This document shows, in pieces, positions 14,156-64,000 of a stretch of 64,000 nucleotides of DNA. Position 1 is the stretch's first letter. Every line of letters begins with the position of its first letter. Both the position numbers and the translations under genes were made by a program. Below the pieces are notes generated by a model. The model was given only the letters and a program-made list of their open reading frames with translations. It had not been told where the DNA came from and ran no database searches. The DNA is taken from assembly GCA_047634635.1 (NCBI GenBank), contig JBLIIE010000003.1, positions 4,810 to 68,809 on the forward strand, in the 5' to 3' direction. Origin of the DNA: Granulosicoccus sp. GTDB taxonomy: Bacteria; Pseudomonadota; Gammaproteobacteria; Granulosicoccales; Granulosicoccaceae.

Positions 14156-15013
14156 ATGAGCGCACTTCCTCCTTACGCATCTTCCGGGCAACGAATCTGG
14201 TTTTATAGCTTCCGGTATCTGATTTGCGGTTTCATCCTGTTTTTTCTGATAGCCCCTATCCTTGTCATCATTCCACTATCTTTTAATGCTCAGGACTTTT
14301 TCACGTATACGCCAGAAATGCTGTCCTTAGACCCAGCTGGCTATTCGTTGAAGCACTATCAGGATTTCTTCGGCAGCTCTGATTGGCAGAAAGCTCTGAA
14401 GAACTCATTTATCATCGCACCCGCTGCAACCATTATTTCAACCAGCCTGGGAACACTAGCAGCCATTGGCCTTTCACAAAGCCATGTGCCTTTTCGTCGA
14501 ACCATAATGGCTGTTCTTATCTCGCCTATGATTGTGCCCTTGATTATATCTGCAGCCGGCATGTTCTTTTTTTATAGCCGTATCGGGTTGCAGGGTGAGT
14601 ATCTGGGAATCATACTGGCACACGCCGCACTAGGCACACCGTTTGTCATTATCACGGTCACTGCAACTCTAGTTGGTTTTGATCACTCTCTAACCCGCGC
14701 AGCAGCAAGTATGGGAGCCAACCCACTTACCACTTTCTTCAAGGTGCAAATGCCTCTGATTATTCCAGGCGTTGTATCTGGGGCTCTATTCGCATTTATT
14801 ACTTCGTTTGATGAGGTGGTTGTTGTGTTGTTCATGGGGTCAGCTGCACAGAAAACACTGCCATGGCAGATGTTTACCGGGCTGCGCGAGCAGATATCTC
14901 CCACTATTCTGGCAGTAGCCACAATAATGGTCGCGATATCAATCGTACTGCTTACTGTGCTCGAAATGCTGCGCAGGCGTTCTGAACGACTACGTGGACT
15001 CTCCGCTAGCTAG
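14156..15013 (+). CDS. ABC permease, PotC family
   Basis: SPMIVPLII, RAAASMGA, AFITSFDEVVV and TLPWQMF motifs. Confidence 0.93.
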   Translation: MSALPPYASSGQRIWFYSFRYLICGFILFFLIAPILVIIPLSFNAQDFFTYTPEMLSLDPAGYSLKHYQDFFGSSDWQKALKNSFIIAPAATIISTSLGTLAAIGLSQSHVPFRRTIMAVLISPMIVPLIISAAGMFFFYSRIGLQGEYLGIILAHAALGTPFVIITVTATLVGFDHSLTRAAASMGANPLTTFFKVQMPLIIPGVVSGALFAFITSFDEVVVVLFMGSAAQKTLPWQMFTGLREQISPTILAVATIMVAISIVLLTVLEMLRRRSERLRGLSAS

Positions 15014-15038
15014 TTCGTACGCAGGGAAGAATATTCAG

Positions 15039-16202
15039 ATGAACTTTACTCATGAAGAATATGCGACTCGTTTAACCAAAACCCGCGCACAAATGGATGC
15101 GCGCGGTATAGATCTGCTATTTGTCACCGATCCTTCCAATATGGCATGGCTCAGTGGCTACGACGGATGGTCGTTTTATACCCACCAATGCGTCATCGTA
15201 AGCCCGATAGGAGAACCTGTCTGGTGGGGACGTGGAATTGATGCTTTGGGTGCTTTGCGCACTGTCATCATGGCTGATGACAATGTAGTGGGTTATGCAG
15301 ATACTTACGTGCAAAACCCTGAACAACACCCCATGGAGACGCTAGCCTCACTGGTACTGGATCGTGGTTGGAAATCAAACACTATCGGTGTAGAGATGGA
15401 TAACTACTACTACTCCGCAGCAGCGCATGCCTGCCTTGTTGAGAGTTTACCGAATAGTCAATTCAAGGATGCAACAGGATTAGTTAACTGGCAGCGCGCG
15501 ATTAAAAGCGACGCTGAAATCGGCTACATGCGAAAAGCGGCACGTATAGTCGAGCACATGCACCGCACAATCATAGATCGCGCAGAGCCCGGTTTAAAGA
15601 AAAATGAACTGGTGGCCGCTATTTACGCCGCCAGTATTGAAGGCGTAGATGAATGCTGGGGCGACTACCCTGCGATCGTACCATTGACACCTTCAGGCAT
15701 GGATGCAACGGCACCACACTTGACGTGGGACGATAGCCCGATGAAATCCGGTGAGTGCACCTTTTTTGAAATCGCTGGTGTCCACAAACGATATCACTGC
15801 CCTCAGTCACGCACCCTGTTTTTAGGTGAACCGCCTGACAAATACCGACGTGCCGAAGCGGCGGTTCTAGAATCTGTTGATGCTGGCCTTGCACAAGCCA
15901 AACCGGGAAATCAATGTGCTGACATTGCAAATGCCTTCAACAGCACACTGAAAAAACACGGCTTCGAGAAAGACAACCGCTGCGGCTACGCTATTGGATT
16001 ATCGTACCCACCAGACTGGGGCGAGCGAACCATGTCGTTTCGCAGCAATGATCAAACGATTTTGCAAGCGGGTATGACATTCCATTTCATGCCAGCGTTA
16101 TGGCTCGATGACGGGGGGCTTGAGCTCACAGAACCCATTTTGATCACAGAAACAGGCGTTGAGTGCCTGTGCAACACTCCTCGGGTGTTGGCAGTTAAAT
16201 AA
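15039..16202 (+). CDS. doeA: Ectoine hydrolase DoeA/EutD-like M24 protein
   Basis: DPSNMAWLSGYDGWSFY, WWGRGIDA.GA, GLVNWQRAIKS, GDYPAIVPL.PSG.DA.APHLTW, HKRYHCP.SRT and YPPDWGERTMS.R. Start set at ATG 15039 rather than 14994. Confidence 0.8.
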   Translation: MNFTHEEYATRLTKTRAQMDARGIDLLFVTDPSNMAWLSGYDGWSFYTHQCVIVSPIGEPVWWGRGIDALGALRTVIMADDNVVGYADTYVQNPEQHPMETLASLVLDRGWKSNTIGVEMDNYYYSAAAHACLVESLPNSQFKDATGLVNWQRAIKSDAEIGYMRKAARIVEHMHRTIIDRAEPGLKKNELVAAIYAASIEGVDECWGDYPAIVPLTPSGMDATAPHLTWDDSPMKSGECTFFEIAGVHKRYHCPQSRTLFLGEPPDKYRRAEAAVLESVDAGLAQAKPGNQCADIANAFNSTLKKHGFEKDNRCGYAIGLSYPPDWGERTMSFRSNDQTILQAGMTFHFMPALWLDDGGLELTEPILITETGVECLCNTPRVLAVK

Positions 16203-19802: not shown

Positions 19803-19898
19803 AAAGGACAGTGTACGTTTTTCGAATACAAGCGTATCAACACTGGGGTTGTTTTAGACAGCCATTCACTTTTTTACACAACCTGAAGTAAATCGGCT

Positions 19899-20195
19899 AT
19901 GACAAACGTTGCTCGTTGCACAGTATTAAAAGCAGGTATTAGCACTTTGGGCGGCTTATCTGCCGCAGCCGCATATAACTCGAATGCACTTGCCCAATCT
20001 TTGACTGATACCTATGAAACAGTCAATGGTGAGTTCTCAGTGCACCCTGTTTCACATGCTTCCAAGGCGTTGAATACCGTTAACGGTGTGATTTATGTCG
20101 ACCCAGTTGGTAGAGCTGATCTGGATGTCTTTGAAGCGCTATTAGCCGAACACAATAAAGATATCAAAGTCGTTCGTGACGCCCGGTACGCCTAG
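19899..20195 (+). pseudogene. Tat-exported MBL-fold metallo-hydrolase with an in-frame internal deletion
   Basis: Degenerate Tat leader (ARCTVLK) and family N-terminus (HPVSHAS...VIYVDPVG) are joined directly to a C-terminal-like tail (ADLDVFEALL...IKVV...Y). No HxHxDH core; only 98 aa. Confidence 0.6.
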
Positions 20196-20340
20196 AACGT
20201 CTCAATATCCAGGCTTATCTAAAATGCCAGGATACAAGTTTGTGAGAACTCTCTCAGCGTTAAAATAAATGTTGAATTCACTGAGAGGCGTTGCAAGTTT
20301 TAAGCGTACTCTCACGTCAGACTCACTAATACTGTAGAAG

Positions 20341-21576
20341 TTGAAAACTATGTGGAAGCTAGGTAGTTTGGCCTTGGTAGTAGGGTTGGCGGTATTTATG
20401 TGGTTTCGAATGAACCCCGCCCAACCAACAGACGCTCCACAAAGCCTTACGTTGCAAGCTGTGGCAAACACAGATAGTGCCAATCAGGCTGCCGGCGGCA
20501 GAACTAAACCTGCTCAGACTGGTGACGGCGAAGGTAGGCCTACTACTGGCAACGGCAGTGGTAAACCTGCTCAGACTACCGGAGGTTCTGGGCGCTCTTC
20601 GCCAGCAGGTAGCGGCAAACCGGGTGGTAGACCTCCGGCACTTGTCGTAACCAGCACTGTCACAACAGCATTAATCAATGATCGGTTAAAAGCCATAGGA
20701 AGCGGAACTGCCGTTGCGTCTGTCAGTGTAGTACCGCTATCGAGCGGTATACTTACCGAAGTATTGGTGACCGCCGGACAGCGCGTCCAAAGTGGTGACA
20801 TTCTCGCCCTTCTGGAGAACGAGTCTGAATTGATAGCACGCGACCGAGCGTCTAGGGCTGCAACTGACGCAGCCACAGATGCCGCCAGATTGACAAAACT
20901 CTACCAATCCAACACTAGCACTGAGGTAGAACTTAACAGAGCAAAAGCGTCGCTTGCAGATGCTGAACTCGGCTTGCGTGAGGCTGAATTGAAATTGACA
21001 AGACGAACCGTAACTGCACCTATATCCGGGATGGTCGGGTTAATACCTGTGGACAAAGGCAATTACGTGACAACTCAAACTGAGCTGATTACCATTGATG
21101 ACCGCTCAACGATTATCGTTGAATTTTGGATTCCAGAAACATTTGCCAACCAGATCAGTCTTAACCAACCTATTGATGCCATTGCGCTTGCTGATCCGGG
21201 CAAGACCTACAAAGGCACAGTCAGTGGAATCGGTAGCCGTATAGAAACAGACAGCCGCACGCTACCGGTACAAGCAAGGCTAGACAACAGCTCGGACAGA
21301 TTACGCCCCGGAATGTCGTTCGAGTTAACGCTGAAATTTGCAGGGCAAGAATACCCAGCCATAGATCCCCTCTCTGTGCAATGGGATTCGAACGGGTCAT
21401 ACATTTGGCGTGTCGTGGAAGGCAAAGTGCAACGCGTGTCTGTAACCATTATTCAACGCAATCCCGAGTCTGTTTTAGTCAATGCAGACATTGCAACTGG
21501 CGAGTCGATTGTCAGGGAAGGGTTAATTTCACTAAGACCTGGAGCATCAGTCCGAACAGGAAATGGTCGACCATGA
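20341..21576 (+). CDS. RND efflux membrane-fusion protein
   Basis: N-terminal TM; lipoyl-like VTAGQRVQSGDIL; APISGMVG; LRPGM. Start is TTG 20341 or ATG 20350. Confidence 0.93.
   Translation: MKTMWKLGSLALVVGLAVFMWFRMNPAQPTDAPQSLTLQAVANTDSANQAAGGRTKPAQTGDGEGRPTTGNGSGKPAQTTGGSGRSSPAGSGKPGGRPPALVVTSTVTTALINDRLKAIGSGTAVASVSVVPLSSGILTEVLVTAGQRVQSGDILALLENESELIARDRASRAATDAATDAARLTKLYQSNTSTEVELNRAKASLADAELGLREAELKLTRRTVTAPISGMVGLIPVDKGNYVTTQTELITIDDRSTIIVEFWIPETFANQISLNQPIDAIALADPGKTYKGTVSGIGSRIETDSRTLPVQARLDNSSDRLRPGMSFELTLKFAGQEYPAIDPLSVQWDSNGSYIWRVVEGKVQRVSVTIIQRNPESVLVNADIATGESIVREGLISLRPGASVRTGNGRP
20505..20577 (+). repeat. 16-nt direct repeat in the low-complexity linker of the MFP
   Basis: TAAACCTGCTCAGACT at 20505-20520 and 20562-20577, encoding KPAQT twice. 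Confidence 0.85.
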
Positions 21577-41211: not shown

Positions 41212-42408
41212 TTATACCGCTGGTATCAAGTCTAACTGTTCAAAATCAAACGGTAGAGTAGATACTCGAGCAGTGGATACAGATCCATCAGCCATCAACA
41301 CCTCTATAGTTTCCTGACTGGCAAACGGCTCCTCAAGCATGGCTGTCGCCAGCTGTACTCGGTATCGAACCGAATAACATTGGGACCCAAGACAGCTTGT
41401 CAAATCACCTTGGCATGTAATGGCTTCTTCAGATGAGTATTTAGAGGCGTTTCGTTCGGCGTCTGAAACAAGGAATGGCCGCTCAGCCAAGGGCTTAGCT
41501 ACCTCTGAGCGTGGAAGAATTATGCCCATCAGACGCCTAGCGGGACCAGCCACCTGTTCAGCTCGCAACGCTTCATGCGAAAGTGAATCTAGATCTTTGT
41601 CGAGTGACACAAAACCACCCAGGCCCGCTTCGAGCACTGAATGCCGTCCATCCATATCATTGCCAAAAGCCAGGAGTCCGTTTTCAATCCGTTCGATGAT
41701 ATTGGGACAACCGGGCCGGACATTCAGATCCTCACCTTTTGCAAATAATTCATCGTACAAAGATTGACCCAAATCGATGTCATCGACATAGATTTCAAAT
41801 CCGCCCTGCTTACTCCAGCCAGAACGCGCCACAATAAACTTATGACCGCGATAGTTCATTCGAACATACCGAAAGAAACGAATATTCTTGACCTCATCTC
41901 CAAAGACGCGAGCCATAAGCTCTTCAGCCAATGGTCCCTGAACCGCCAACGGCCACACATCCGGTTCGTCAATCTGGACATCCAAGTTAGCCCCACGAGC
42001 TAACCCCTTCGCCCAAAGAATCACATCGGAATCTGAAATGGATAACCACCAATGATCATCAGCTAATCGTATGCCAACCGGGTCGTTTATCAATTTGCCT
42101 TTCTCATCAGCCAGTGGCAAGTAGACACAGCGGTCTAGTGCAACGCCTTCGACTGCCCTGGGAGTCATCCATTGAACGAGCCGAGTGGCATCAGGACCCT
42201 TGATACTGACTTGACGCTCAACAGCAACATCCCAAACCTGAACAGCTTCACTCAGATGCCAATAGTCCCGCTCAAAAGAATCAAATTCTGTTGCCAGCAG
42301 CATATGATTGTAAACGGTAAACGCTCTCGCTCCTTTCTCAATTGAGCGAGAGAAAAAAGGCGACTTTCTCAAGCGCCTGGACAATGCTAGATTGGGAGCG
42401 ATATACAT
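41212..42408 (-). CDS. dmdA: DMSP demethylase DmdA (GcvT family)
   Basis: SRRLRKSPF, TVYNHMLL, VQVWDVA.ERQVSI.GPDA, NDPV, LAVQGP, IRFFRY, ARSGWSKQGGFEIY and GCPN.IER.E.GLL..GNDM all match recalled DmdA sequences; the C-terminal domain is more divergent. Confidence 0.8.
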   Translation of the reverse strand: MYIAPNLALSRRLRKSPFFSRSIEKGARAFTVYNHMLLATEFDSFERDYWHLSEAVQVWDVAVERQVSIKGPDATRLVQWMTPRAVEGVALDRCVYLPLADEKGKLINDPVGIRLADDHWWLSISDSDVILWAKGLARGANLDVQIDEPDVWPLAVQGPLAEELMARVFGDEVKNIRFFRYVRMNYRGHKFIVARSGWSKQGGFEIYVDDIDLGQSLYDELFAKGEDLNVRPGCPNIIERIENGLLAFGNDMDGRHSVLEAGLGGFVSLDKDLDSLSHEALRAEQVAGPARRLMGIILPRSEVAKPLAERPFLVSDAERNASKYSSEEAITCQGDLTSCLGSQCYSVRYRVQLATAMLEEPFASQETIEVLMADGSVSTARVSTLPFDFEQLDLIPAV

Positions 42409-51229: not shown

Positions 51230-51466
51230 TCCGGCTGCGAGTTAGCGATGAACCCTATGTGTGCACCGTTGCTAACCGATCATCGTAGAGAATCACTACC
51301 CAGAAATCAGGATCCTGTTTTCCATAGGCAAACGCTTCCCCTGCAATAGTTTCCACACGAGAAATACCCAGTGTTGCTAGAACCTTGTCATAAAATAACG
51401 ATGACTGTTCAAAATCATTGGTTCCAATCGAAACCTGAGAAAAATAACTGGATAGTTGTCAGACAT
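51230..51466 (-). pseudogene. VOC/glyoxalase-family remnant
   Basis: ATG 51466 with an early frameshift into SSYFSQVSIGTNDFEQSSLFYDKVLATLGI...YGKQDPDFWV; a second shift gives NGAHIGF.A; the C-terminal DPDGN region is not found. The 3' limit is approximate. Confidence 0.7.
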
Positions 51467-52599: not shown

Positions 52600-54741
52600 T
52601 CACAACAGATTTAAAACCTTAAGCGCAAAGGCCTGCTCAATAGCAACATCAACCAAGCTGGCATAGCGACCCGTCTCTCCAAAATGCCCCGAACTCATAT
52701 TAGTTTTCAATAAGAGTATTTGTTCATCACAGCGCATATGTCGGTGGCGTGCAACCCACTTGGCTGGTTCCCAATACGTGACTCTGGGATCAGACACCCC
52801 TGCTGTTACAAGCATTGGCGGATATTCGCGTGCCTGTACATTATCGTACGGTGAATACGACTTGATATCCAGATAAGCCTGCACGTCTTCTTTCGGGTTT
52901 CCCCATTGAGACCACTCACCCGGAGTCAATGGCAATGTGTCATCCAGCATGGTGTTCAGGACATCAACAAAGGGCACGTCTGCAACCGCACCACCCCATA
53001 AATCGCAAATCCGGTTTAGTGCCGCACCCACGAGCAATCCACCCGCAGAGCCACCCGCTATTACGATATTACCAGCCTTGGTATATTGCTCTTCCACCAA
53101 ATATTCACCCACAGCGATTAGGTCATCCATACTTTTCGGTTTCCCCCCGAATCGCGCAGCCTCATACCACGCGCGCCCCTTCTCCTGGCCACCGCGGACA
53201 TGCGCTATGACGTAGACAAATCCCCGATCAACTAGAGACAAGCGTGTTGTTCCAAATGAAGCAGGCGATGACGAACCGTAAGCGCCGTAAGCGCTCAACC
53301 AGCAAGGTGCAGAACCATCAATGGGTGTGTTTTTGTGATGCAAGATGGTTAACGGCACCATTTCACCATCAGATGATTTTGCGTAGCGACGAGCTACCTC
53401 ATAGTGTTCAGAATCATGACCACTGGGAATGTGATCTTCCTTGAGCAATTGCCGAGCAGCGGTAGGCATATGATACTTAAACGTCTGAGAAGGAGTTGCA
53501 GGTGACTCGTACTCAAATTGAAAGGTATCTTCATCAAATTCTACTAATGGATCGAGACTCAGAGCGAAAGCTTCTTCGGTGAACTCAATACGGTGGGTTT
53601 GCTTTTCTTCATTATGTCGATAACAAATACACGGCAGGGCGTTTTCTCTCTCCATCCACATCACCCAGTTTTTGTAGGCGTAATGATCAAGCACCATACG
53701 ACCAGGCTGATAAGGTAACCAATCTTGCCAGTGCTCTCTAGATGGTGTTTCGCAACTAGTCTCCATGATTTTGAAGTCTACAGCCTCGTCCGCATTAGTT
53801 CGAATCAGGAAGCGGCTACCCTGATGATCAACGCTGTACTCGATACCCTCAGCTCTAGGTTCAATGATTTGAGGAGCGCTGGTTATATCGCCTACCGGAA
53901 TAAACCAGACTTCACTTTCATCATTCATGTCGGATGATATAAATACGAAGTCTGCTGACACACTTGTCCAAACCGAACAGAAAAAACGTGAATCTGTCTC
54001 TTCGTAGACCAGAACATCACTTTGTGTTTCTGTTCCAAGTTCGTGTCGAAAAACCTGGCTGGGCCGATGATCATCGTCCACCCGCGTGTAAAACAAATAG
54101 CTCTCATTCCCCCAAGCTGCCGATTCTACATCGCAAATGGTGTCCTTATCTTCACCGTTGGCTAAATCGCGAATGAAGACGGTATACCGTTCTGAGCCCG
54201 TTGTATCTGCGCTCCAGGCAAGATGCGTATGTGCTGGACTGTATTCAACATCACCCGGATCAAAGTAGTCATGATCTGTTGCCTCTATATTAAAATCAAT
54301 AAGAAGCTGCAGCTCACTTTCATCAATGTGCGCATCTTCCATGGAACGGCTACTTCCATCGGTCGGGCTTGTCGTATCACCCAGAGAAACTTCGTATGAC
54401 ATACGTGGGCACCTCCAATAGCTCGGATGTTCTTCGTCACCCTGATAGCGTTCTACATAACTCCAAGGGCCATCGTGATCAGGAAGCGAGGTATCGTCCG
54501 CCTGAATACGTCCTTTCATTTCGGCAACCAATGAATCCTGCAAATCTTTAGTATCAGCCATGACAGACTCAAACCAGTCGTTCTCACTGTCAAGATAGTG
54601 CTTGATATCAGCAGGCAATCGAGATGGATCATCCACGCACTCCTGCCAGTTATCGGCTCGTAGCCAACCGTAATCATCACAGGTTTCAACGCCATGAATT
54701 TGCGATTCAACAGGTATGCGTTTGGCTATGGGTGGATTCAT
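52600..54741 (-). CDS. ptrB: Oligopeptidase B (S9A)
   Basis: DDYGWLR, beta-propeller region, AHVRGG, GGSAGG, DVPFVDV, DPRV.YWEPAKW.A and SGHFG. Confidence 0.92.
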   Translation of the reverse strand: MNPPIAKRIPVESQIHGVETCDDYGWLRADNWQECVDDPSRLPADIKHYLDSENDWFESVMADTKDLQDSLVAEMKGRIQADDTSLPDHDGPWSYVERYQGDEEHPSYWRCPRMSYEVSLGDTTSPTDGSSRSMEDAHIDESELQLLIDFNIEATDHDYFDPGDVEYSPAHTHLAWSADTTGSERYTVFIRDLANGEDKDTICDVESAAWGNESYLFYTRVDDDHRPSQVFRHELGTETQSDVLVYEETDSRFFCSVWTSVSADFVFISSDMNDESEVWFIPVGDITSAPQIIEPRAEGIEYSVDHQGSRFLIRTNADEAVDFKIMETSCETPSREHWQDWLPYQPGRMVLDHYAYKNWVMWMERENALPCICYRHNEEKQTHRIEFTEEAFALSLDPLVEFDEDTFQFEYESPATPSQTFKYHMPTAARQLLKEDHIPSGHDSEHYEVARRYAKSSDGEMVPLTILHHKNTPIDGSAPCWLSAYGAYGSSSPASFGTTRLSLVDRGFVYVIAHVRGGQEKGRAWYEAARFGGKPKSMDDLIAVGEYLVEEQYTKAGNIVIAGGSAGGLLVGAALNRICDLWGGAVADVPFVDVLNTMLDDTLPLTPGEWSQWGNPKEDVQAYLDIKSYSPYDNVQAREYPPMLVTAGVSDPRVTYWEPAKWVARHRHMRCDEQILLLKTNMSSGHFGETGRYASLVDVAIEQAFALKVLNLL

Positions 54742-56243
54742 GTAAGGACCAGTGCGTTGCCAACCAGATGATGCAAACTGGTGACGTGCACGCTAGAGAG
54801 ATTATGGTGCGGTAATACGGAGGACAACTGCGTTTTGCAAATTGCACAAATAGCCACAAGATGGGTGACCTGGTCGGAAGTGACAACAGCTTGTAGCGCT
54901 TGTGCACGCGGAAGCGCCCCTTTTACTCGAAGGTCTATTAGATCGTCTGTTAACAGACCACCACCACCACCACAACAAAAAGTAGCCTGCCCGATAGTAT
55001 CTTTGCTCATATCCACAAGTTTGGGCACACTGGCCGCTAATAGTGCACGCGGTATCGTGAATTGTCCGCCAGGATCATCACCCATTCCAGCGCCACGCGC
55101 CACATTACACGAATCATGGTACGTCACCACAATGCCCTTGTTAGCTGAAGGATCAAGTTTGATGACACCTTGTGTCAATAGTTGATGAGTGACTTCACAG
55201 ATATGTTCTGCTCGAGGATGAGCTTTATCGAGAAATTCCAATGGCCCAATTAGTTCATCCAGAAAGCTGTAAGCCACTCGCCAGGCATGACCACATTCTC
55301 CAATAACAATTCTGTTTACACCGAGCCCCATGGCCGCGTGCTTGATGCGTAATGCTATCTCGCGCATGTGATCGTGCTGCCCTGTGAAGAGACCGAAATT
55401 CGCCGCCTCTGAAGCTTCAGAACTGAAGGTCCAGCGAATACCCGCCATGTGCAACACCTTTGCATAGCCGATCAATCCATCAACATGCGGCTCTGCAAAG
55501 AAATCTGCAGAAGGTGTAACCACCAACATATCTGCTGACTCATCGTCCAGTGGTAGCCGGACGTGGATACCGGTGTCTTCAAGGATGTCCTCTTCCAGAT
55601 TTTCAAGAACATCTGCAAGTGCGCGTGGTTTCATTCCCAGGTTGTTACCAATAGTCTTAACTTTAGTGATGATTTCCTGAGAGTATTGTTGTCCAAGACC
55701 GACACTTGCCAATATTTCCCTACCAGCCATAGTGACCTCGGACGTATCGATACCCTTCGGGCAGTAGACGGTGCATCGGCGACATTCTGAACATTGATGA
55801 AAATAGGTATACCAGTCTTGCAGTAACTGCTTATCCAGTTTCCGTGCACCTACTAACCAGGGAAACACTCTCCCCACGAGGGTAAAGTAGCGCCGGTAGA
55901 CCGAACGCATTAAATCCTGACGAGCAACAGGCATGTTTTTAGGATCATGTGTTCCCAGAAAATAATGGCACTTGTCAGTACAGGCTCCACACTTGGTGCA
56001 TGTGTCGAGAAATACCCGTAAGCCACGACGTTCCTTTACCAACTGACCCAGGCGCTCAATTGCCTTGTCATGCCAATCTTCAACCAACGTGCCAGGAAGT
56101 CCCAGCGATTCTTGCACAACAGGTTCAGCCACCGCCGTATGACTCGTGGCCATGGCTCCTTCCTGTATCAAAGGAATAACACGATAGCGTCCGACGACGC
56201 TGGGCAGTTTCGAAAAGTCAGTACCAGAGGGAGTGTCACTCAC
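54738..56243 (-). CDS. dsrK: DsrK Fe-S/CCG protein, sulfur-oxidiser type
   Basis: CTKCGACTDKCHYFLGT.DPKNMPVARQDLMR, FHQCSECRRC..YCP.GIDT, TPSADFFAEPHVDGLIGYAKV, GECGHAWR, HDSCNVAR, FCCGGGGG and AICAICK; closely resembles recalled Allochromatium-type DsrK. Confidence 0.92.
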   Translation of the reverse strand: MSDTPSGTDFSKLPSVVGRYRVIPLIQEGAMATSHTAVAEPVVQESLGLPGTLVEDWHDKAIERLGQLVKERRGLRVFLDTCTKCGACTDKCHYFLGTHDPKNMPVARQDLMRSVYRRYFTLVGRVFPWLVGARKLDKQLLQDWYTYFHQCSECRRCTVYCPKGIDTSEVTMAGREILASVGLGQQYSQEIITKVKTIGNNLGMKPRALADVLENLEEDILEDTGIHVRLPLDDESADMLVVTPSADFFAEPHVDGLIGYAKVLHMAGIRWTFSSEASEAANFGLFTGQHDHMREIALRIKHAAMGLGVNRIVIGECGHAWRVAYSFLDELIGPLEFLDKAHPRAEHICEVTHQLLTQGVIKLDPSANKGIVVTYHDSCNVARGAGMGDDPGGQFTIPRALLAASVPKLVDMSKDTIGQATFCCGGGGGLLTDDLIDLRVKGALPRAQALQAVVTSDQVTHLVAICAICKTQLSSVLPHHNLSSVHVTSLHHLVGNALVLT

Positions 56244-56959
56244 GATGATGACGACTCATCGTTTGAACCTGTTCGGATTTTAGCGGCTGTATCGCGTTGA
56301 TTAAGTGTAGGACTGAAAAGAATCCCAAGTCCATGTAGCAATTTGCTAACAGGGAACACTATGATAAGTACAAGAACAAGTAGTAAATGAATCAACAGAA
56401 CGGCGCTGTCAGGAAGAGGCTGCCAATGGAATGTCATTGCACCTCGAAAAAACTGACCAACCGCAAAGGTATCCACTGGCCAGAGACGTTTTAAACATAA
56501 ACCTGAAACCGCAATAGCGATAAGTAATAACAAATGTAGGTAATCACTTGGGGCTGATATGTACCGCAGTCTGTCTACAAGAACTCTGCGAGCGAGCAAT
56601 ATGCTCAACCCAAAAACCATAGCGCCTGCAGCCCAGCCGCTCCATATTATAAAGGGTATAATTACAGGTGGAAGCTGCTCAAAAATAAAGCGCGCGTGCA
56701 TGATTAAAACAAACAACAACCCATAGTGAAACAATATACTCGCCAGCCAGGTTGTTTTACTCGCCCGCAAAAGAGCACGAAATGCGAATAACTCAAGCGT
56801 CAGTCTGCCGATAACACCCAAATGTGTTTTGGGTGCAGGTGTTAACGGAATTGGCAAAGGTGATGGCGTTTTGGCCCACTGTAACAATCTGTAGCTGGTA
56901 GCCACGAGAGCCCAAAGCAACGCAACAGTAAAACCAATGCCCAGAAGCACGTCAGACAC
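56240..56959 (-). CDS. dsrM: DsrM di-heme b membrane protein, sulfur-oxidiser type
   Basis: TPSPL.IP.TPAP, LFH...HARF, RR...DR.RYIS.PSD, H.LLV..L...FP.SKLLH..G..FSPT.NQ.D. Start set at GTG 56959, which overlaps the dsrC stop, rather than 57061. Confidence 0.88.
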   Translation of the reverse strand: MSDVLLGIGFTVALLWALVATSYRLLQWAKTPSPLPIPLTPAPKTHLGVIGRLTLELFAFRALLRASKTTWLASILFHYGLLFVLIMHARFIFEQLPPVIIPFIIWSGWAAGAMVFGLSILLARRVLVDRLRYISAPSDYLHLLLLIAIAVSGLCLKRLWPVDTFAVGQFFRGAMTFHWQPLPDSAVLLIHLLLVLVLIIVFPVSKLLHGLGILFSPTLNQRDTAAKIRTGSNDESSSS

Positions 56960-57311
56960 AGCCAGTGGGTTTGGGAAGCCCTGCATATCGACAGGCCTGC
57001 TTGGCAGGACCTCTTGGAAACAGTTCGTACAGGTACTTACTATTCCCTTTTTCTTGACCAAACCGTTTGCCGATCTGTTTGGTCAGAATTCGGATCGCTG
57101 GTGCTATTTCGTAATTCTCGTAGTATTCCTGCAGAAAACCAATGACTTCCCAGTGGGCCTCACTTAATTCGATGGAGTCAGCCTTTGCCAGCTCGATAGC
57201 AAGCTCACGCGTCCAGTCAGATCGACTCTTCAAATAGCCTTCGTGATCTTTGTCCAGAGAATCGATCAGTTCACTCATAGAAAAATCAGACACCGGTAGT
57301 GAAAAAGTCAT
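56952..57311 (-). CDS. dsrC: DsrC sulfur-carrier protein with both conserved cysteines
   Basis: D.EGYL, HWEVI.FL.EYY, APAIR.LTK and EKGNSKYLY.LFP.GPAKQACRYAGLPKPTGCV (Cys-X10-Cys). Start is 57311 or 57278. Confidence 0.9.
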   Translation of the reverse strand: MTFSLPVSDFSMSELIDSLDKDHEGYLKSRSDWTRELAIELAKADSIELSEAHWEVIGFLQEYYENYEIAPAIRILTKQIGKRFGQEKGNSKYLYELFPRGPAKQACRYAGLPKPTGCV

Positions 57312-57326
57312 TTCTTGGAACCTATT

Positions 57327-57686
57327 CTAAAGGGCAAGCTTGAGCAAAACATCAACCAACTCATCAGATGTACCCAGGTAATCGGTAATGTGAATATCCA
57401 TATTCGGGTATTCGACTTGTTTAATTGCCACCTGCTCGGGTATGTCGTCAGCCACATGGGCCCCGCGTGCCAGAAAGTACGGTACAACACTTACACTGGT
57501 CGCCCCTTTCTCTACACAAGTTTGAATCCCATTGGGTATCAAAGGATCGCAAAGTTCCAGAAACGCATATTCAACTATATCGAATCGAGACTTGGCTTTC
57601 GTCGCCAAACGCTCGGTTAAGCGTGCAATTTCAGCATTGGATTCAGCACGACGGCTGCCGTGCGCGACTAGCAGAATAGCTTTCAT
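57327..57686 (-). CDS. cbiX: Short CbiX/SirB sirohydrochlorin chelatase
   Basis: LLVAHGSRR..SN, AFLEL..P and VPYFL..G.HV..DIP. Confidence 0.88.
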   Translation of the reverse strand: MKAILLVAHGSRRAESNAEIARLTERLATKAKSRFDIVEYAFLELCDPLIPNGIQTCVEKGATSVSVVPYFLARGAHVADDIPEQVAIKQVEYPNMDIHITDYLGTSDELVDVLLKLAL

Positions 57687-59045
57687 TTACGACTCTTCAG
57701 CTTTCATTTGATTTATAGCCTCGTCTCGCAGTTCTGACACTGCATTAGCATGACCATCAAAACCTTCATACGTAGCAAAACGATGTGTGTGCGGAGCCAT
57801 TTCAGCGTAACCAGTTGCGGTCATGTGGCCCACTGAGCACGTTTTCATGAAATCGTGCACTCCTAGCGGTGAATGAGTACGAGCAGCCGCAGATGTTGGC
57901 AACACACAGTTAGGGCCCATCATGTAGTTGGCGATGGAACCCGCAGCATGCTCTCCCAACAGAATTTCGCTGGCATTGCGAATATGCGCTAAATGCTCAT
58001 AGGGAGTTTTCGATAACACCTGACAATGTTCCGGCGCATAGTCGTTGATGAACGCATAGGCCTCTGCTACGTTTGACGCTAACACTATTCCTCCACGCTG
58101 ACCACTTAGTACGGTGGATGAATAACCGGCAAGCGTTTCATTTTGCCGGTCCCAGTACTGCGGAATTGCCTTGCGAACAGCTTCTGCCAATTGCCGATCC
58201 CAAGTGACCAGAAATGAGCTGCTATCCGGACCATGTTCGGATTCAATAGTCATATCCAGTGCCGCTATGAGCGGATTGGCAGACTCATCAGCAAGAATAA
58301 TGGTTTCGCTGGGCCCAGCGGGCAAACCCGGATCAATACGACCTGCGAGTACACGCTTAGCAGCGACTAGCCAAGGGCTACCCGGGCCCACAATCTTAAA
58401 ACAGCGAGGAACGCTGGCCGTTCCGTAAGCAGCGGCTGCAACAGCCTGCGCGCCACCCGCCTTGAAAACCTGTTCAACACCCGCAAGCCTAGCAGCGACT
58501 AATGTTGCTGGATCGACGTGACCATCAGGACCCGGAGGGGTGAGAATAATAGGCTGCGGTACGCCCGCTACTGATGCCGGAATGGCTGTCATAAGAGTAA
58601 CTGAAGGGAAAGATCCCTTCCCTCTAGGTGAATAACACGCCACCGAATCAATAGGTGTGGCTCTCTCGCCCACCAAAACACCCGGGCGAATTTCCTTCAT
58701 CCACATTTCTGGAGGTCGCTGAGCCTCATGGAAGCGACGAATATTGTCCGCCGAATATTCCAGCGTCTCAATCATTGCCCGGTCTATTTTGTCGAAGGCC
58801 TTGTCGATATCGGACTTTGAAGCCGCAATAAATTCAGCTCTTAGGCTGGCAGCACCGTCAAATTCGCGCCCAAAACGTGCAAGCGCTTCATCACCATCAT
58901 TACGAACAGCTTCAATAATAGGACGGACACCGTTTATAAAGGTATCCAGATCGTCCTCAGCCCGGCTCAGGAGCTGTTCTCGCTCTGTAACGGTGAGTTG
59001 GGCCAGATCGTGTAAAGCCACCTCAGGATATTGCCGAACAGTCAT
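57687..59045 (-). CDS. Histidinol dehydrogenase homologue (HisD family) with an atypical active site
   Basis: GGAQAVAA..YGT, KIVGPG, AGPSE, EHGPDS and APEH are present; variant motifs are IESEH, IANY and GPNCVLPT. Confidence 0.88.
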   Translation of the reverse strand: MTVRQYPEVALHDLAQLTVTEREQLLSRAEDDLDTFINGVRPIIEAVRNDGDEALARFGREFDGAASLRAEFIAASKSDIDKAFDKIDRAMIETLEYSADNIRRFHEAQRPPEMWMKEIRPGVLVGERATPIDSVACYSPRGKGSFPSVTLMTAIPASVAGVPQPIILTPPGPDGHVDPATLVAARLAGVEQVFKAGGAQAVAAAAYGTASVPRCFKIVGPGSPWLVAAKRVLAGRIDPGLPAGPSETIILADESANPLIAALDMTIESEHGPDSSSFLVTWDRQLAEAVRKAIPQYWDRQNETLAGYSSTVLSGQRGGIVLASNVAEAYAFINDYAPEHCQVLSKTPYEHLAHIRNASEILLGEHAAGSIANYMMGPNCVLPTSAAARTHSPLGVHDFMKTCSVGHMTATGYAEMAPHTHRFATYEGFDGHANAVSELRDEAINQMKAEES

Positions 59046-59253: not shown

Positions 59254-60582
59254 ATGCCCACTGACATAAACACCTCTGCCTCGATACCCACTTCTACAGA
59301 TAAGGTCGAGCACACCACAAGCTACTATGCAGCTTCAGCCAATAAGAGCCCAGAGCGAGAATGGCTAAATGATTCGATTGATGTCGATGTCTGCGTGATT
59401 GGTGGGGGATTCAGCGGGTTATCCGCTGCCTTGCATCTAACCGCTCAAGGTAGACATGTCACCCTCCTGGAGGGCGCCAAAATCGGCTGGGGGGCATCTG
59501 GTAGAAATGGCGGCCAACTGATACACGGACTGAATGCAAGTTTAAACACCGTCGGCAAACGCTACGGGCAGGAAGCAGCCAATTTTATGGGCAGCCTCGT
59601 TCAGGAAGGTGCTAGCGTCATTCGTCAGTTCGTTAAAGACCACAGCATTGAATGTGATCTAAAACAGGGGAGTATTTTTGCCGCATTCAACGCTCGCCAA
59701 ATGCGCGAGCTTGAAGCTAAGCAAGTCTTGTGGCGAAAGCACGGCATGGACGAACATGAAATGTTGGACAAAAACAGCATAAAAAATCACGTTGGCACCG
59801 ATCAATACCTGGGTGGCATGCTGGATCACTCCGGTGGACATATTCACCCTCTTAATCTGGCACTGGGTGAGGCAGCTGCACTCGAAAAGCTTGGAGGCAA
59901 GATCTACGAGCAATCGAGGGTGACTCGCGTAGATTCCATTGAAGACAAACCTGTGGTAATCACTGCCAACGGTTCTGTCCGGTGCGAAACATTGGTGGTC
60001 TGTGGCAATGCTTATTTGGGCAAAAGCGTTCCAACCCTTAAATCTCGGGTAATGCCTGTGTCAACTCAGATGATGGCAACAGAGCCACTGTCCGACGAAT
60101 TAGCGAATGCGTTGCTGCCCACTGACAACTCAGTCGAAGATGTTCGCTACATTCTGGACTACTATCGTTTATCAGCCGATAAGCGCTTATTGTGGGGCGG
60201 TGGCACCGTTTACGGCGGCACTGATCCCAGCGACGTCGTCACCAAATTACGCCCTAATATGGAAAAAGTGTTTCCAGAATTGTGCGGGGTAAAAATCTCC
60301 CATGCCTGGAGTGGAAATTTTGCGTTGACCTTCACCCGCGTTCCGTTACTAGGCAAACTCGGCCCAGACACTTTCTATGCAATGGGCTATAGCGGTCATG
60401 GCGTAACTGGCAGCCACCTATTCGGCAAATTACTTGCAGAAGCGATAGACGGAAAAACAGATCGATTTGATCGCTTCGCTGCTCTGCCCTGGTATCCATT
60501 CCCGGGTGGACAACGATTTAGAGCGCCTTATTCGACAGTAGGCTCTTGGTGGTATGGCATGCGCGACGCGCTTGGAGTATGA
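59254..60582 (+). CDS. FAD-dependent oxidoreductase, PuuB/OrdL (gamma-glutamylputrescine oxidase) family
   Basis: SYYAASAN, GGGFSGL, GWGASGRNGGQ, HPLNLALGEA, DYYRLS.D and GYSGHGV. Confidence 0.9.
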   Translation: MPTDINTSASIPTSTDKVEHTTSYYAASANKSPEREWLNDSIDVDVCVIGGGFSGLSAALHLTAQGRHVTLLEGAKIGWGASGRNGGQLIHGLNASLNTVGKRYGQEAANFMGSLVQEGASVIRQFVKDHSIECDLKQGSIFAAFNARQMRELEAKQVLWRKHGMDEHEMLDKNSIKNHVGTDQYLGGMLDHSGGHIHPLNLALGEAAALEKLGGKIYEQSRVTRVDSIEDKPVVITANGSVRCETLVVCGNAYLGKSVPTLKSRVMPVSTQMMATEPLSDELANALLPTDNSVEDVRYILDYYRLSADKRLLWGGGTVYGGTDPSDVVTKLRPNMEKVFPELCGVKISHAWSGNFALTFTRVPLLGKLGPDTFYAMGYSGHGVTGSHLFGKLLAEAIDGKTDRFDRFAALPWYPFPGGQRFRAPYSTVGSWWYGMRDALGV

Positions 60583-60591
60583 GAATTACCT

Positions 60592-61332
60592 ATGATTTCT
60601 TCTGAAGACACACCGAAAGCTCGCATTCGGCTAGGCGTACTACAAGCCGGAAGAGTTCCGGATGAAATGGCGGATCAACACGCCGACTATGATCAACTTT
60701 TCGTCGATCTACTCGGCGCCAACGCGTTTGATTATCGTCATTGGGCAGTACTTGACGGGAAATTTCCAAGCAGCACGGCCGACGCCGATGCGTGGTTAAT
60801 TACTGGCTCACGATTTGGCACTTATGAGGATCACGATTGGATTCCACCCCTGGAGAAATTTATCCGTGAAGTCTTTGCTGCAGATCAGCCCATGGTTGGT
60901 ATTTGTTTTGGCCACCAGATTATTGCCCAAGCTATGGGTGGACGCGTCGAAAAATTCTCAGACGGTTGGTCTGTAGGGCGTGTTGAGTACAACCTTGATA
61001 AATCTGTTTTCGGCACTGGATCCTCATCAACCTCTGATCAAACCGCCTTACTGGCTTTCCATCAGGATCAGGTCGTTCAAGCACCCGAATCATCAATCAC
61101 CGTGGGCAGTACGGATTTCTGCCAACACGCAGCGCTCCTTTATGGGAATCGTGCATTGACCCTACAGCCCCATCCCGAATTCTATTCTGATTTTATCGAC
61201 GGTCTGCTGGTTGCGCGTCGCGCTATACTGCCCCCAGCAATCATTGACAACGCGGCCGAAACACTTGCGCTACCCATTGTTCGCGAATCTATCGCAAATA
61301 CGATCCGTAAATTTCTCAAGCGAGACTTATGA
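60592..61332 (+). CDS. Class I glutamine amidotransferase
   Basis: ITGS, GICFGHQ (nucleophile Cys), HQDQV and QPHPEF. Confidence 0.9.
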   Translation: MISSEDTPKARIRLGVLQAGRVPDEMADQHADYDQLFVDLLGANAFDYRHWAVLDGKFPSSTADADAWLITGSRFGTYEDHDWIPPLEKFIREVFAADQPMVGICFGHQIIAQAMGGRVEKFSDGWSVGRVEYNLDKSVFGTGSSSTSDQTALLAFHQDQVVQAPESSITVGSTDFCQHAALLYGNRALTLQPHPEFYSDFIDGLLVARRAILPPAIIDNAAETLALPIVRESIANTIRKFLKRDL

Positions 61333-62699
61333 GTAATCAATCGAAGTGGATGGAACAACTTCCAAATGCTTTCCATACTTGGCTTAATGGTCGACGAGTT
61401 GATGACGTAGAATGTGTCATTGCAGACATTGCAGGCACAGCACGCGGCAAAGCCATGCCGGCACGCAAATTTGCGAAAGCAGATGCCATGTATTTACCCA
61501 CGTCCATTTTCTATCAAACCATAACAGGTGAATACGTCGATCTGGACGACATGGAAGATCAATGGACAGAATCTGATCTAATCCTCACTCCCGACTACTC
61601 AGCTGCTACTGCAGTTCCGTGGTCCGATGACGTGACTCTGCAAGTTGTACACGACATAACGCATCAGGACGGAAGTCCTGTTGGCATGGCGCCAAGAAAC
61701 GTATTAAAGCGCGTTGTCGATCTTTACCATGCCAGCGGGTGGCAACCCGTAGTTGCACCAGAGTTGGAATTTTATCTAACCAAGCCAAACATCGATCCAA
61801 ACCTGCCGATAGAACCGCCTATTGGACGCACAGGTCGGCAGGGTATAGCAAAGCAGGCATATTCCATGAGCGCTGTGGAAGAATATGGACCTGTCATTGA
61901 TGACATCTACGACTTTGCTGAAGCTCAAGGGTTTGAAATAGACACGATCATTCAAGAAGGCGGTGCCGGACAGATTGAAATCAATTTGCAGCACGGCGAC
62001 CCAGTGCATTTAGCGGATCAAGTATTCTTCTACAAAAGACTAATACGTGAGGCAGCACTACGAAACAAATGTTTTGCCACCTTCATGGCAAAGCCAATGG
62101 AAGAACAACCCGGCAGTGCCATGCATATCCATCAAAGCGTTATTCGCACCTCTGATGGTCGCAACCTGTTCAATACTGAAGACGATAAACCCACTGATTT
62201 GTTTTACGGCTTTATTGCTGGCCAACAAACGCTGATTCCAGATATTCTTTGCATACTGGCTCCCTACGTAAACTCCTACAGACGTTTTCGGCGTGATGAC
62301 TCCGCTCCCATTAATCTTGAGTGGGGCTTTGATAATCGTACAACAGGCATACGTGTACCCTTGTCCAGCCCTGAAAGTCGACGCGTAGAAAATCGTGTTG
62401 TCGGTATGGATTGCAACCCTTACCTTGCCATCGCGGCAAGCCTTGCTTGCGGGTTGATCGGCATGAAAAACAAAATGCAACCAAGGGATGCCGTTACCAG
62501 TGACGCTTATTCACTACCTCATGATCTTCCGATAGATCTAAGCAGAGCGCTCGATTTATTCAACGACAGCCCTAATATCACTGACGTCTTAGGCAAAGAT
62601 TTCTGCACCCTGTATAGCGCCATTAAACGACAGGAGTCTGATGCGTTCTTACAGGTTATAAGCCCTTGGGAACGAGAACATTTACTGCTGAACGTCTAG
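61329..62699 (+). CDS. Glutamine synthetase-like gamma-glutamyl-amine ligase (PuuA/SpuI-like)
   Basis: DIAG.ARGK, APELEFYL, EGG.GQIEIN, FMAKP...PGSAMH.H.S, WG.DNRT and R.ENR..G.D.NPYL; ATGA overlap with the upstream gene. Confidence 0.9.
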   Translation: MSNQSKWMEQLPNAFHTWLNGRRVDDVECVIADIAGTARGKAMPARKFAKADAMYLPTSIFYQTITGEYVDLDDMEDQWTESDLILTPDYSAATAVPWSDDVTLQVVHDITHQDGSPVGMAPRNVLKRVVDLYHASGWQPVVAPELEFYLTKPNIDPNLPIEPPIGRTGRQGIAKQAYSMSAVEEYGPVIDDIYDFAEAQGFEIDTIIQEGGAGQIEINLQHGDPVHLADQVFFYKRLIREAALRNKCFATFMAKPMEEQPGSAMHIHQSVIRTSDGRNLFNTEDDKPTDLFYGFIAGQQTLIPDILCILAPYVNSYRRFRRDDSAPINLEWGFDNRTTGIRVPLSSPESRRVENRVVGMDCNPYLAIAASLACGLIGMKNKMQPRDAVTSDAYSLPHDLPIDLSRALDLFNDSPNITDVLGKDFCTLYSAIKRQESDAFLQVISPWEREHLLLNV

Positions 62700-62717
62700 A
62701 GTGATTTTACTGCAAGT

Positions 62718-64000
62718 ATGAAGCTACTTCACGCGAATGACCATCTGGGAAAACACGCACCTTCGTGGTACAAAGCCACTTGCCCGATAGAGGACCGCAC
62801 CACACTTAGCCGCAACGCTACTTTTGATGTATGCGTGATTGGTGCTGGTTTCACCGGTCTATCCACAGCCTTACATCTCGCTGAGAATAGACGCTCAGTT
62901 GCTGTTCTGGATGCTCATCGAGTGGGCTGGGGCGCCTCAGGACGCAATGGTGGGCAACTTGGCACGGGCTTCAATCAGGATCAAATTGAGTTGACGGCAC
63001 TTTTAGGTGAACACCGTGCTCACCAATTATGGAAAATAGCTGAAGATGCCAAAGCGTTAATACACACACGCTGCAAGCAATACGATATCAATATTGACTA
63101 TGAGCCTGGCATAGTCACGGCTTTGCACAAACCCAGGTTCGTTCGCCCAGCCCATGAGTACTGTGAATATTTAGCGACTAATTATCAGTACCATGAATTG
63201 CAGCCACTGACAAAACAGACGATTCGACATCGCATTGCTAGTGACGACTATTTCGGTGGAGCCGTCGATCATGGCGCAGGCCACATACACCCTTTGAAAC
63301 TAGCAAGTGGGTTAGCAAACGCTTGCGAAAAAAACGGTGCCATTATCCACGAAAGAAGCGAAGTTATCCGTATAGATACACTTCCACGTGCCGGTGGCTA
63401 TCGGGTTGTAACAACGCAAGGTAGCGTTGTATGTGAAAAAATTGTTATCGCGACCAATGGCTACATAGACAATCTAAAACCAGTAGTTAACCGATGGATC
63501 ATGCCCATCAATAATTTTATTGTAGTCACTGAACCATTGGGATCCCTGGCGGATGAGATTTTACCGTGTAACGATGCTGTTGCAGATTCGCGATTTGTTG
63601 TTAACTATTATCGCCGCGTAGATGGCGATCGATTGTTATTCGGTGGAGGGGAAAACTACTCCTACCGCTTCCCTAAATCAATAAACAAGATAGTGCAGAG
63701 AGCCATGCTGGGTGTATACCCACAACTAAACAACGTTGCAATCGACTATGCTTGGGGTGGCACACTTGCAATAACACGCAGTAGGCTGCCATATACCTGT
63801 CAATTCGCCGACGGCATTTATGCCGCAGGAGGATTTTCTGGACATGGAGTCGCACTTGCAGGACTCTATGGTCAAGTTATTGCCGAGCATATTTGCGAAC
63901 ACTCAGATAGATTCAATTTACTCAGCGGACTTCCAGGAAAGCCTTTTCCAGGAGGTCGATCGGCCAGACCGGCACTGCTTGCTTTAGCCATGACTGGATA
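62718..64000 (+). CDS. Second PuuB/OrdL-family FAD oxidoreductase; runs off the window end
   Basis: Manual translation from ATG 62718: MKLLHANDHLGKHAPSWYKAT...DVCVIGAGFTGLSTALHLAE...GWGASGRNGGQ...HPLKL...GFSGHGVA. No stop before 64000. Confidence 0.9.
   Translation, partial: MKLLHANDHLGKHAPSWYKATCPIEDRTTLSRNATFDVCVIGAGFTGLSTALHLAENRRSVAVLDAHRVGWGASGRNGGQLGTGFNQDQIELTALLGEHRAHQLWKIAEDAKALIHTRCKQYDINIDYEPGIVTALHKPRFVRPAHEYCEYLATNYQYHELQPLTKQTIRHRIASDDYFGGAVDHGAGHIHPLKLASGLANACEKNGAIIHERSEVIRIDTLPRAGGYRVVTTQGSVVCEKIVIATNGYIDNLKPVVNRWIMPINNFIVVTEPLGSLADEILPCNDAVADSRFVVNYYRRVDGDRLLFGGGENYSYRFPKSINKIVQRAMLGVYPQLNNVAIDYAWGGTLAITRSRLPYTCQFADGIYAAGGFSGHGVALAGLYGQVIAEHICEHSDRFNLLSGLPGKPFPGGRSARPALLALAMTG

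Follow-up and report, generated by a model that had tools for sequence, protein, structure and literature searches.

A dsrC-dsrM-dsrK module without dsrAB at its locus is conserved under purifying selection in the genus Granulosicoccus

DsrC and DsrMK are the textbook partners of DsrAB, and surveys of dissimilatory sulfur metabolism commonly rely on dsr genes as markers. In the reverse Dsr (rDsr) system, for example that of Allochromatium, they belong to the cluster dsrABEFHCMKLJOPN(RS). That DsrC carries S0 and trisulfide, and that DsrMK(JOP) reduces it, is established (PMC10504309), and Dsr membrane-complex genes without DsrAB have been noted in Halomonas titanicae SOB56 (PMC9237845). Here, a dsrC-dsrM-dsrK module (dsrCMK) was analyzed in a 64 kb stretch of Granulosicoccus sp. 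DNA (contig JBLIIE010000003.1), called the window below. Its genes are intact, keep their cofactor ligands, show genus-wide synteny, evolve under purifying selection and have left traces in transcript data. With moderate confidence, we propose that the module encodes a functional DsrC thiol/(tri)sulfide:quinone oxidoreductase, which would work independently of DsrAB and would have been inherited from an oxidative-type Dsr system and kept after the other dsr genes were lost from the locus. No description of a stand-alone Granulosicoccus dsrCMK module was found in the literature.

The module lies in a tight six-gene string, hisD-cbiX-dsrC-dsrM-dsrK-ptrB, on the minus strand of the window:

57687-59045, minus strand: hisD, histidinol dehydrogenase, first gene of the string (TIGR00069, 419 bits against a cutoff of 244)
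57327-57686, minus strand: cbiX, small class II sirohydrochlorin chelatase (PF01903, E=2.3e-29)
56952-57311, minus strand: dsrC, sulfur carrier with Cys107 and Cys118 (PF04358, E=1.8e-41; TIGR03342)
56240-56986, minus strand: dsrM, NarI-type dihaem cytochrome b membrane subunit (PF02665, E=1.6e-12)
54738-56243, minus strand: dsrK, cytoplasmic HdrD-type iron-sulfur catalytic subunit (NF045796, 521 bits)
52600-54741, minus strand: ptrB, oligopeptidase B (PF02897, PF00326, PDB 7YWP)

Reading of the junctions bore out what the initial annotation had reported, namely that dsrC, dsrM and dsrK are intact and follow one another in this order, at these coordinates, with overlapping starts and stops; family scans agree with its placing of cbiX upstream and ptrB downstream. 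The TAA stop of hisD immediately adjoins the ATG of cbiX, and a spacer of 15 nt separates cbiX from dsrC. The dsrC/dsrM overlap measures 35 nt and is seen again in the gene calls of the relatives; with an alternative GTG start at 56950, dsrM would begin 1 nt past the dsrC stop. The dsrM/dsrK overlap is GTGA and the dsrK/ptrB overlap is ATGA. Transcription of the hisD-to-ptrB string as a single operon is plausible, not proven, and a consensus scan for promoter- and terminator-like sites gave none above the shuffled expectation.

The dsrC product passes the TIGR03342 cutoff (150.6 bits against 53.5). Its best PDB match, far ahead of the DsrC proteins of reducers, is the DsrC of Allochromatium vinosum (1YX3, E=1.5e-44), whereas the sulfurtransferase 7SYB reaches E=5.9e-13 only. 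The predicted Cys-X10-Cys tail is present, with Cys107 and the penultimate Cys118 (...QACRYAGLPKPTGCV), and the C-terminal arm GPAKQACRYAGLPKPTGCV carries conservative changes at three positions when its last 19 residues are compared with 17 aligned sequences. The TusE equivalog NF008562 gives 127 bits, under its cutoff of 191. In relatives, dsrC begins at the internal ATG 57278, giving a protein of 108 aa. By its family domain and both arm cysteines the window protein would count as a true DsrC; DsrAB, whose co-substrate DsrC is, was found neither anywhere in the window nor, over ~10 kb, at 11 loci of relatives.

The dsrM product aligns to NarI (1Q16_C), has five hydrophobic segments and keeps the heme-type histidines of the initial annotation, His87, His97, His200 and His218 being invariant in 17 sequences; it is predicted to be the quinone-interacting part of the complex. 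The DsrM equivalog NF038037 scores 118 bits on it against a cutoff of 300, a miss which is uninformative because the bona fide oxidative DsrM of Allochromatium palmeri (169 bits) also falls under the cutoff; this model does not cover oxidative-type DsrM. For DsrK, the equivalog NF045796 gives 521.4 bits (cutoff 400, E=1.6e-156) against 619.7 for the canonical A. palmeri protein. The two ferredoxin motifs and the CCG cysteines claimed for it were all recovered: two [4Fe-4S] motifs of the CxxCxxCxxxC form (Cys82/85/88/92 and Cys151/154/157/161) and the CCG-type cysteines Cys317, 379, 423, 424, 466 and 469. These 14 cysteines, invariant in 76 canonical oxidative DsrK proteins, are kept in full by all eight members of the Granulosicoccus clade, which also keeps 162 of 211 near-invariant columns. 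The Pfam CCG model (PF02754) gave no score on the window DsrK and is recorded for three homologues, and a PDB sequence search with DsrK gave no match. The GTG start of dsrK overlaps the dsrM stop; a 471-aa form starting at ATG 56153 is called too, and homology to A. palmeri DsrK and to the locus L096 (L-numbers designate the DsrK/cbiX loci of relatives that were compared) runs upstream of this ATG.

The assignment to the sulfur-oxidiser type made by the initial annotation is in agreement with the identities to the Allochromatium proteins, which are 66, 45 and 61% for DsrC, DsrM and DsrK, respectively; DsrM is the most divergent, its 45% comparing with 51-95% for canonical loci. The module also stands alone at its locus, as had been claimed. 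tblastn searches of the window with 11 A. palmeri proteins (DsrA, B, E, F, H, L, J, O, P, N and S) were empty at E<0.1. No homologue of DsrJ, DsrO or DsrP was found in the window or in any Granulosicoccus-type locus, and the rDsr pathway set (rDsrAB, DsrEFH and DsrL) is absent from the window and the related loci. In a search with a Granulosicoccaceae DsrA as query, none of the 120 best matches listed (at least 83% identity) is named Granulosicoccus and none lies on the G. antarcticus chromosome; this is weak evidence for a genome-wide lack, because the match list was saturated at identities of at least 83%. A pangenome comparison that covers G. antarcticus and eight metagenome-assembled genomes (MAGs) from kelp lists genes for assimilatory sulfate reduction, sox, sulfide oxidation and dimethylsulfoniopropionate (DMSP) and leaves Dsr unmentioned (PMC9238374). 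In its Table S7, kelp Granulosicoccus MAGs without NarG and NarH are scored positive for NarI (K00374), and this NarI is probably DsrM mis-assigned as the nitrate reductase gamma subunit. Granulosicoccaceae are unmentioned in the supplements of PMC11406059 and PMC10504309.

Selection was estimated as the ratio of nonsynonymous to synonymous substitution rates (dN/dS) by the Nei-Gojobori method between the window and the sister species L101, at unsaturated dS (0.66-0.93). The following values of dN/dS were obtained:

dsrC: 0.048
dsrM: 0.106
dsrK: 0.034
hisD: 0.044
ptrB: 0.062
fadB-like gene: 0.086
DAO gene: 0.076
glnA-like gene: 0.018

The purifying selection on dsrCMK is thus as strong as that on hisD and the other flanking genes, which upholds the earlier suggestion that the three genes are selected. 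Across the genus dS is saturated, yet DsrC and DsrK remain 77-85% identical and hisD ~84%. Furthermore, a sea-ice and a seawater metatranscriptome contain short contigs that match dsrK, cbiX and hisD; one of these contigs spans the dsrK/ptrB junction. This is weak evidence that the region is expressed.

The module is not particular to one genome; the comparison of relatives revealed it genus-wide. In a scan of one genome per species, the closest DsrK proteins (77-81% identity) were found in four Granulosicoccus MAGs, the rest of the best 80 matches showing 58-67%. The exact window proteins occur on 13 contigs of independent assemblies, mostly from sea ice and marine sediment, with shared synteny; these same-species contigs are at least 99.86% identical in nucleotides over the operon, almost clonal across samples, and too alike for a population-level pN/pS to be informative. 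A protein search recovered ~65 clusters of Granulosicoccus-type DsrK at 68-96% identity, and the type strain G. antarcticus IMCC3135, with its complete chromosome of 7.78 Mb (CP018632), carries this type. In every Granulosicoccus-type locus with DsrK (L014-L017, L096-L099 and L101-L103, where L097 is isolate 3-233 and L098 is IMCC3135), dsrC-dsrM-dsrK is present without dsrAB. In L096, a called gene of 1389 aa (19658-21386) combines NarI, ferredoxin and peptidase S9 domains. A DsrM-DsrK-PtrB fusion was rejected there as an artefact of a 1-nt frameshift near 20200, past which the dsrM C-terminus is conserved in the shifted frame; the dsrM-dsrK join is traced to this frameshift and the dsrK/ptrB junction falls outside the compared DNA. 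The frameshift is probably an assembly indel in this 4.5 Mb single-contig assembly.

As a baseline, dsrAB lies in cis in 28 of 30 canonical-type metagenome loci with >5.5 kb upstream; the metagenome scan with DsrK returned canonical-type loci only and no further Granulosicoccus-type example. Nearly all of the 76 genome loci have the canonical dsrABEFHCMKLJOPN arrangement, and complete rDsr operons occur in members of the Granulosicoccaceae (L031, L042, L049 and L050). Four loci resemble the Granulosicoccus module in lacking dsrAB. L061 has dsrCMK between a Rieske gene and a Glycos_trans_3 (GT3) gene, both on the minus strand, and a minus-strand cysG, and is nested among canonical Granulosicoccaceae; L074 reads GT3-dsrEF-dsrCMK; L100 and L104 carry dsrEFHCMK with tusA and cysG, respectively. 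These arrangements either arose independently or are second copies.

In a tree of 84 DsrK sequences, a single clade on a long branch unites the Granulosicoccus-type proteins; every canonical oxidative DsrK falls outside it, also those from the other Granulosicoccaceae with complete rDsr (L042, L049 and L050). Descent from a trimmed rDsr cluster, a possibility raised by the initial annotation, is plausible, the module having later taken its own role, and cysG flanks some canonical dsr operons as well (L037, L039 and L180). Since it does so, the sirohaem genes beside the dsrAB-less modules are most simply seen as vestiges of complete loci. Save for a weak Rieske match at the edge, nothing in the flanks of the canonical Granulosicoccaceae operon L049 recurs at the Granulosicoccus locus, so that in-place trimming is not demonstrable by synteny. 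The genus Granulosicoccus would have kept dsrCMK from an oxidative-type Dsr system while dsrAB, dsrEFH, dsrL, dsrJOP and dsrN were lost from the locus.

Among the flanking genes, cbiX encodes a protein of ~120 aa with PF01903 over residues 9-115 and scores 77 with the nickelochelatase CfbA model, under the cutoff of 120. It lies upstream of dsrC or soxY in L014, L015, L094, L097-L099, L102 and L103. The initial annotation counted it as a component of the module; L016, L017 and L101 (the sister species, DsrK 96% identical) have hisD-dsrCMK-ptrB without it, the cbiX-free stretches being L101:7611-9292, where hisD overlaps dsrC by 4 nt, and L016:5691-7441. cbiX is a frequent but dispensable upstream neighbour. 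A small Rieske ferredoxin gene and cysG on one strand, with a divergent YbiB/TrpD2-like gene, form a conserved trio downstream in L015, L016, L099, L102 and L103; the trio is absent from the window, and the same three genes surround dsrCMK in L061.

The ptrB product is a bona fide oligopeptidase B (PF02897, E=4.7e-72; PF00326, E=1.3e-56; PDB OpB 7YWP, E=2.3e-120) with a GGSAGG serine motif, scoring 441 against the cutoff of 1313 of the E. coli PtrB equivalog. It follows dsrK in the window, L015-L017, L097, L098, L101 and L102 and follows soxZ in L094; SBP56 takes its place in L099 and L103. Because the dsrK stop overlaps ptrB (ATGA), the two genes are probably co-transcribed; a functional link is unproven. 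On a metagenome contig of the same species (L006:5258-7374), a 25-nt gap in ptrB leads to two gene calls, of 586 and 125 aa, owing either to an assembly error or to ptrB being dispensable in part of the population. The linkage of hisD to the module is loose, other genes lying between hisD and cbiX in L015, L094, L096 and L099, and all named homologues of hisD are annotated as histidinol dehydrogenase. The candidate HpsN, a 2,3-dihydroxypropane-1-sulfonate (DHPS) dehydrogenase of the HisD family that would have linked the module to sulfonates, was rejected in view of the hisD equivalog cutoff passed, of this loose linkage and of these annotations.

Decay of nearby dispensable genes, as claimed at first, was confirmed in one case only:

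51235-51449, minus strand: remnant of a glyoxalase gene (VOC family), frameshifted and truncated (tblastn)

Residues 7-68 and 67-81 are matched in two different frames, and there is no open reading frame of at least 60 aa; the intact gene directly follows ptrB in L097, L098, L101 and L102. The remnant sits between a fadB-like gene and a HAD/S6PP-like gene. Divergent from hisD, the plus strand carries at 59254-64000 a flavin adenine dinucleotide (FAD) oxidase, a class I glutamine amidotransferase, a glutamine-synthetase-like ligase and a second FAD oxidase, a conserved cluster which resembles a gamma-glutamylation pathway for amine catabolism. At 8622-16202, also on the plus strand, an ATP-binding cassette transporter lies between two M24 hydrolases, one of which, the ectoine hydrolase DoeA, clears its cutoff of 613 with 650 bits.

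The initial annotation overlooked a context of soxYZ-like carriers, an SBP56 methanethiol-oxidase-like gene and a demethylase gene of the window:

41212-42408, minus strand: dmdA, DMSP demethylase (NF009133, 437.9 bits against a cutoff of 410)

In the deepest members of the clade (L099:7596-13029 and L103:7751-13369), the genes read cbiX-soxY-soxZ-dsrC-dsrM-dsrK-SBP56, and the junctions between them are short or overlapping. In L103 SBP56 is followed by fer2, and a Rieske gene and cysG, both on the minus strand, and a YbiB/TrpD2-like gene lie further downstream in both loci. The order cbiX-soxYZ(like)-dsrCMK-SBP56-fer2 may represent the ancestral operon. The SoxYZ-like proteins, with Tat-type leaders and with a cysteine at the C-terminus, fail the cutoffs for true SoxY and true SoxZ; SBP56, in which a signal peptide is missing, gives a match to the selenium-binding protein 2ECE (E=2e-119) and stays under the MtoX cutoff. 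In L094:12473-15716, and also in L095, the order is cbiX-soxYZ(like)-ptrB, with the sox carriers exactly at the site that dsrCMK occupies in the window, so that in L094 one sulfur-carrier module replaces the other. DmdA lies 12 kb from dsrK in the window and 8 kb from it in L099 (429.8 bits with NF009133). A FadB-like gene follows dmdA in both.

From the homology with DsrMK and HdrDE, a flexible DsrC arm would carry sulfur or a disulfide on Cys118 and Cys107 and would dock at the CCG-domain iron-sulfur site of cytoplasmic DsrK. Electrons would then move over the two [4Fe-4S] clusters of DsrK and the two b haems of membrane DsrM, to or from the quinone pool. The genus Granulosicoccus is described as aerobic and heterotrophic. 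The oxidative direction, in which DsrC dithiol or persulfide would be converted to disulfide or trisulfide with electrons passed to quinone, is slightly favoured because of the oxidative-lineage proteins, the aerobic host genus and the co-located genes of oxidative sulfur catabolism. The physiological role is judged from the gene neighbourhood only: the module would handle cytoplasmic sulfane sulfur or sulfide set free from organosulfur compounds, and its substrate is probably the sulfane sulfur that organosulfur catabolism yields. A putative route leads from DMSP over DmdA to methanethiol and, by an SBP56-type methanethiol oxidase, to sulfane sulfur (S0); the product of methanethiol oxidases is reported to be sulfane sulfur and not H2S (PMC10936201). 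As a further and doubtful step, DsrC-DsrMK could link to quinone the last step of an undescribed cytoplasmic pathway that needs no DsrAB, in which sulfane sulfur set free from DMSP-derived methanethiol by a SELENBP1-type SBP56 is loaded onto DsrC and then processed by DsrMK. We infer the reaction, its direction and the sulfur donor from these homologies and neighbours.

A decaying remnant of an ancestral rDsr operon, without present function, was one of the two outcomes offered by the initial annotation. The missing partner genes, the loss of the module from L094, the 1-nt frameshift of dsrM in L096 and the decayed glyoxalase would fit it, but dN/dS values of 0.03-0.11, like those of the housekeeping neighbours, exclude such a remnant, the catalytic residues are all kept in at least eight species with saturated synonymous sites, and the conserved frame past the L096 frameshift makes an assembly indel likely. 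This explanation is effectively refuted, and the test favours the other outcome, a minimal DsrC/quinone module serving another pathway. It is also very improbable that the DsrC homologue is a TusE-type relay for tRNA 2-thiouridine with DsrMK as unrelated passengers: DsrC and TusE do belong to one family (TIGR03342) and NF008562 does reach 127 bits, but this score is below the cutoff, Cys107 and the full DsrC arm are kept, and A. vinosum DsrC is a far better match than 7SYB. In addition, dsrC overlaps dsrM and always travels with dsrMK, and the DsrMK ligands are kept under purifying selection.

Operon fragmentation, with dsrAB, dsrEFH, dsrL and dsrJOP elsewhere in the genome and dsrCMK serving ordinary reverse-Dsr oxidation, appears unlikely. 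The complete rDsr operons of other Granulosicoccaceae, the described sulfur oxidiser of this family cited in PMC9238374 and the siroheme genes cbiX and cysG beside the module are compatible with it, and the scan for dsrAB was confined to the window and the compared loci. However, dsr genes are consecutive in one cluster in proteobacterial sulfur oxidisers (PMC10504309), in agreement with the 28 of 30 loci above; Granulosicoccus DsrK, and DsrM especially, diverge from all canonical proteins; and neither the 120 matches listed by the DsrA search nor the pangenome study names a Granulosicoccus Dsr. We infer that dsrAB is absent elsewhere in the genome too. In another explanation, which we regard as quite unlikely, the partner is an assimilatory-type sirohaem sulfite reductase or other sirohaem enzyme; DsrC would take its S0 and DsrMK would reduce the trisulfide with quinol, giving sulfide for assimilation. 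The reduction of trisulfide by ubiquinol is energetically unfavourable. The presence of cbiX directly upstream in most relatives, of cysG beside the module or ~2-5 kb from its last gene in L015, L016, L061, L099, L102, L103 and L104, and of cysI and cysJ in Granulosicoccus genomes would suit a sirohaem partner, and assimilatory sulfite reductase is reported to release S0 (PMC13188885). Nevertheless, dsrCMK is still selected in L016, L017 and L101 without cbiX, the cysG adjacency may be a vestige as discussed above, none of the loci has a sulfite reductase gene within 10 kb, and according to PMC13188885 no evidence ties DsrC to assimilatory reduction.

Several points weigh against a DsrAB-independent DsrC:quinone oxidoreductase with an organosulfur role. 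The absence of dsrAB covers the window and the compared loci, and dsrAB could still lie elsewhere in Granulosicoccus genomes. L094, on a 4.9 Mb contig of a Granulosicoccus MAG, is without dsrCMK, so that one lineage at least can dispense with the module. The DsrK tree was built by neighbour joining and midpoint-rooted, without a reductive outgroup. The RNA evidence consists of few short contigs at low depth, in which DNA carry-over is possible. The window operon has neither SBP56 nor soxYZ, so that the organosulfur link rests on the relatives and on dmdA 12 kb away. Finally, oxidation could leave a DsrC trisulfide, whose further fate without DsrAB lacks an explanation.

An aerobic marine heterotroph genus which is common on kelp and polar sea ice thus keeps a selected DsrC-DsrMK without DsrAB at the locus. 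If the absence of DsrAB is genome-wide, DsrC/DsrMK has a DsrAB-independent job, which bears on the mechanism of DsrMK in the oxidative direction, and marker-gene surveys can misread dsr genes. The link to soxYZ-like genes, SBP56 and dmdA could join DMSP and methanethiol sulfur to sulfane-sulfur handling and the quinone pool; should the SBP56-DsrC pathway be true, organosulfur degradation in abundant alga- and ice-associated aerobic heterotrophs would be tied directly to the respiratory chain. The question is directly testable in G. antarcticus IMCC3135, a cultured strain with a complete genome.

Compared with known systems, the module shares a DsrC-family carrier with TusBCD-TusE of E. coli, whereas TusE has one cysteine and no DsrMK partner. 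With HdrDE, the heterodisulfide reductase of Methanosarcina, it has in common a b-cytochrome anchor and a CCG iron-sulfur subunit coupling disulfide/thiol conversion to a membrane carrier; the substrate of HdrDE is the small heterodisulfide CoM-S-S-CoB and that of the module would be the protein DsrC. The DsrMK-only complexes of Gram-positive and archaeal sulfite and sulfate reducers, Desulfurellales and Acidulodesulfobacterales (PMC10504309) are likewise two-subunit complexes without DsrJOP and with DsrC, but they belong to anaerobic reducers or disproportionators with DsrAB in 67 of 74 bacterial basal-clade assemblies (PMC10504309), while DsrAB is absent from the present locus.

The arrangements of L061, L074, L100, L104 and H. 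titanicae SOB56 (PMC9237845) also lack DsrAB in cis and come from marine Gammaproteobacteria/Pseudomonadota. The four loci have a cysG, tusA or YbiB/TrpD2-like (Glycos_trans_3) gene nearby, their DsrK falls within canonical clades, and dsrE and dsrF are mostly kept (with dsrH in L100 and L104); the Granulosicoccus clade, in contrast, has lost dsrEFH and is monophyletic and genus-wide. Reverse Dsr shows the same C-M-K order and the same cysteine and histidine ligands, together with the identities to A. palmeri given above. It differs in that the Granulosicoccus loci examined are without dsrAB, dsrEFH, dsrL, dsrJOP and dsrN, have cbiX, soxYZ-like genes, SBP56 or ptrB as neighbours, place their DsrK on a separate long branch and belong to an aerobic heterotrophic host genus. 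The DsrAB-less dsrCMK module is a variant of the known Dsr system.

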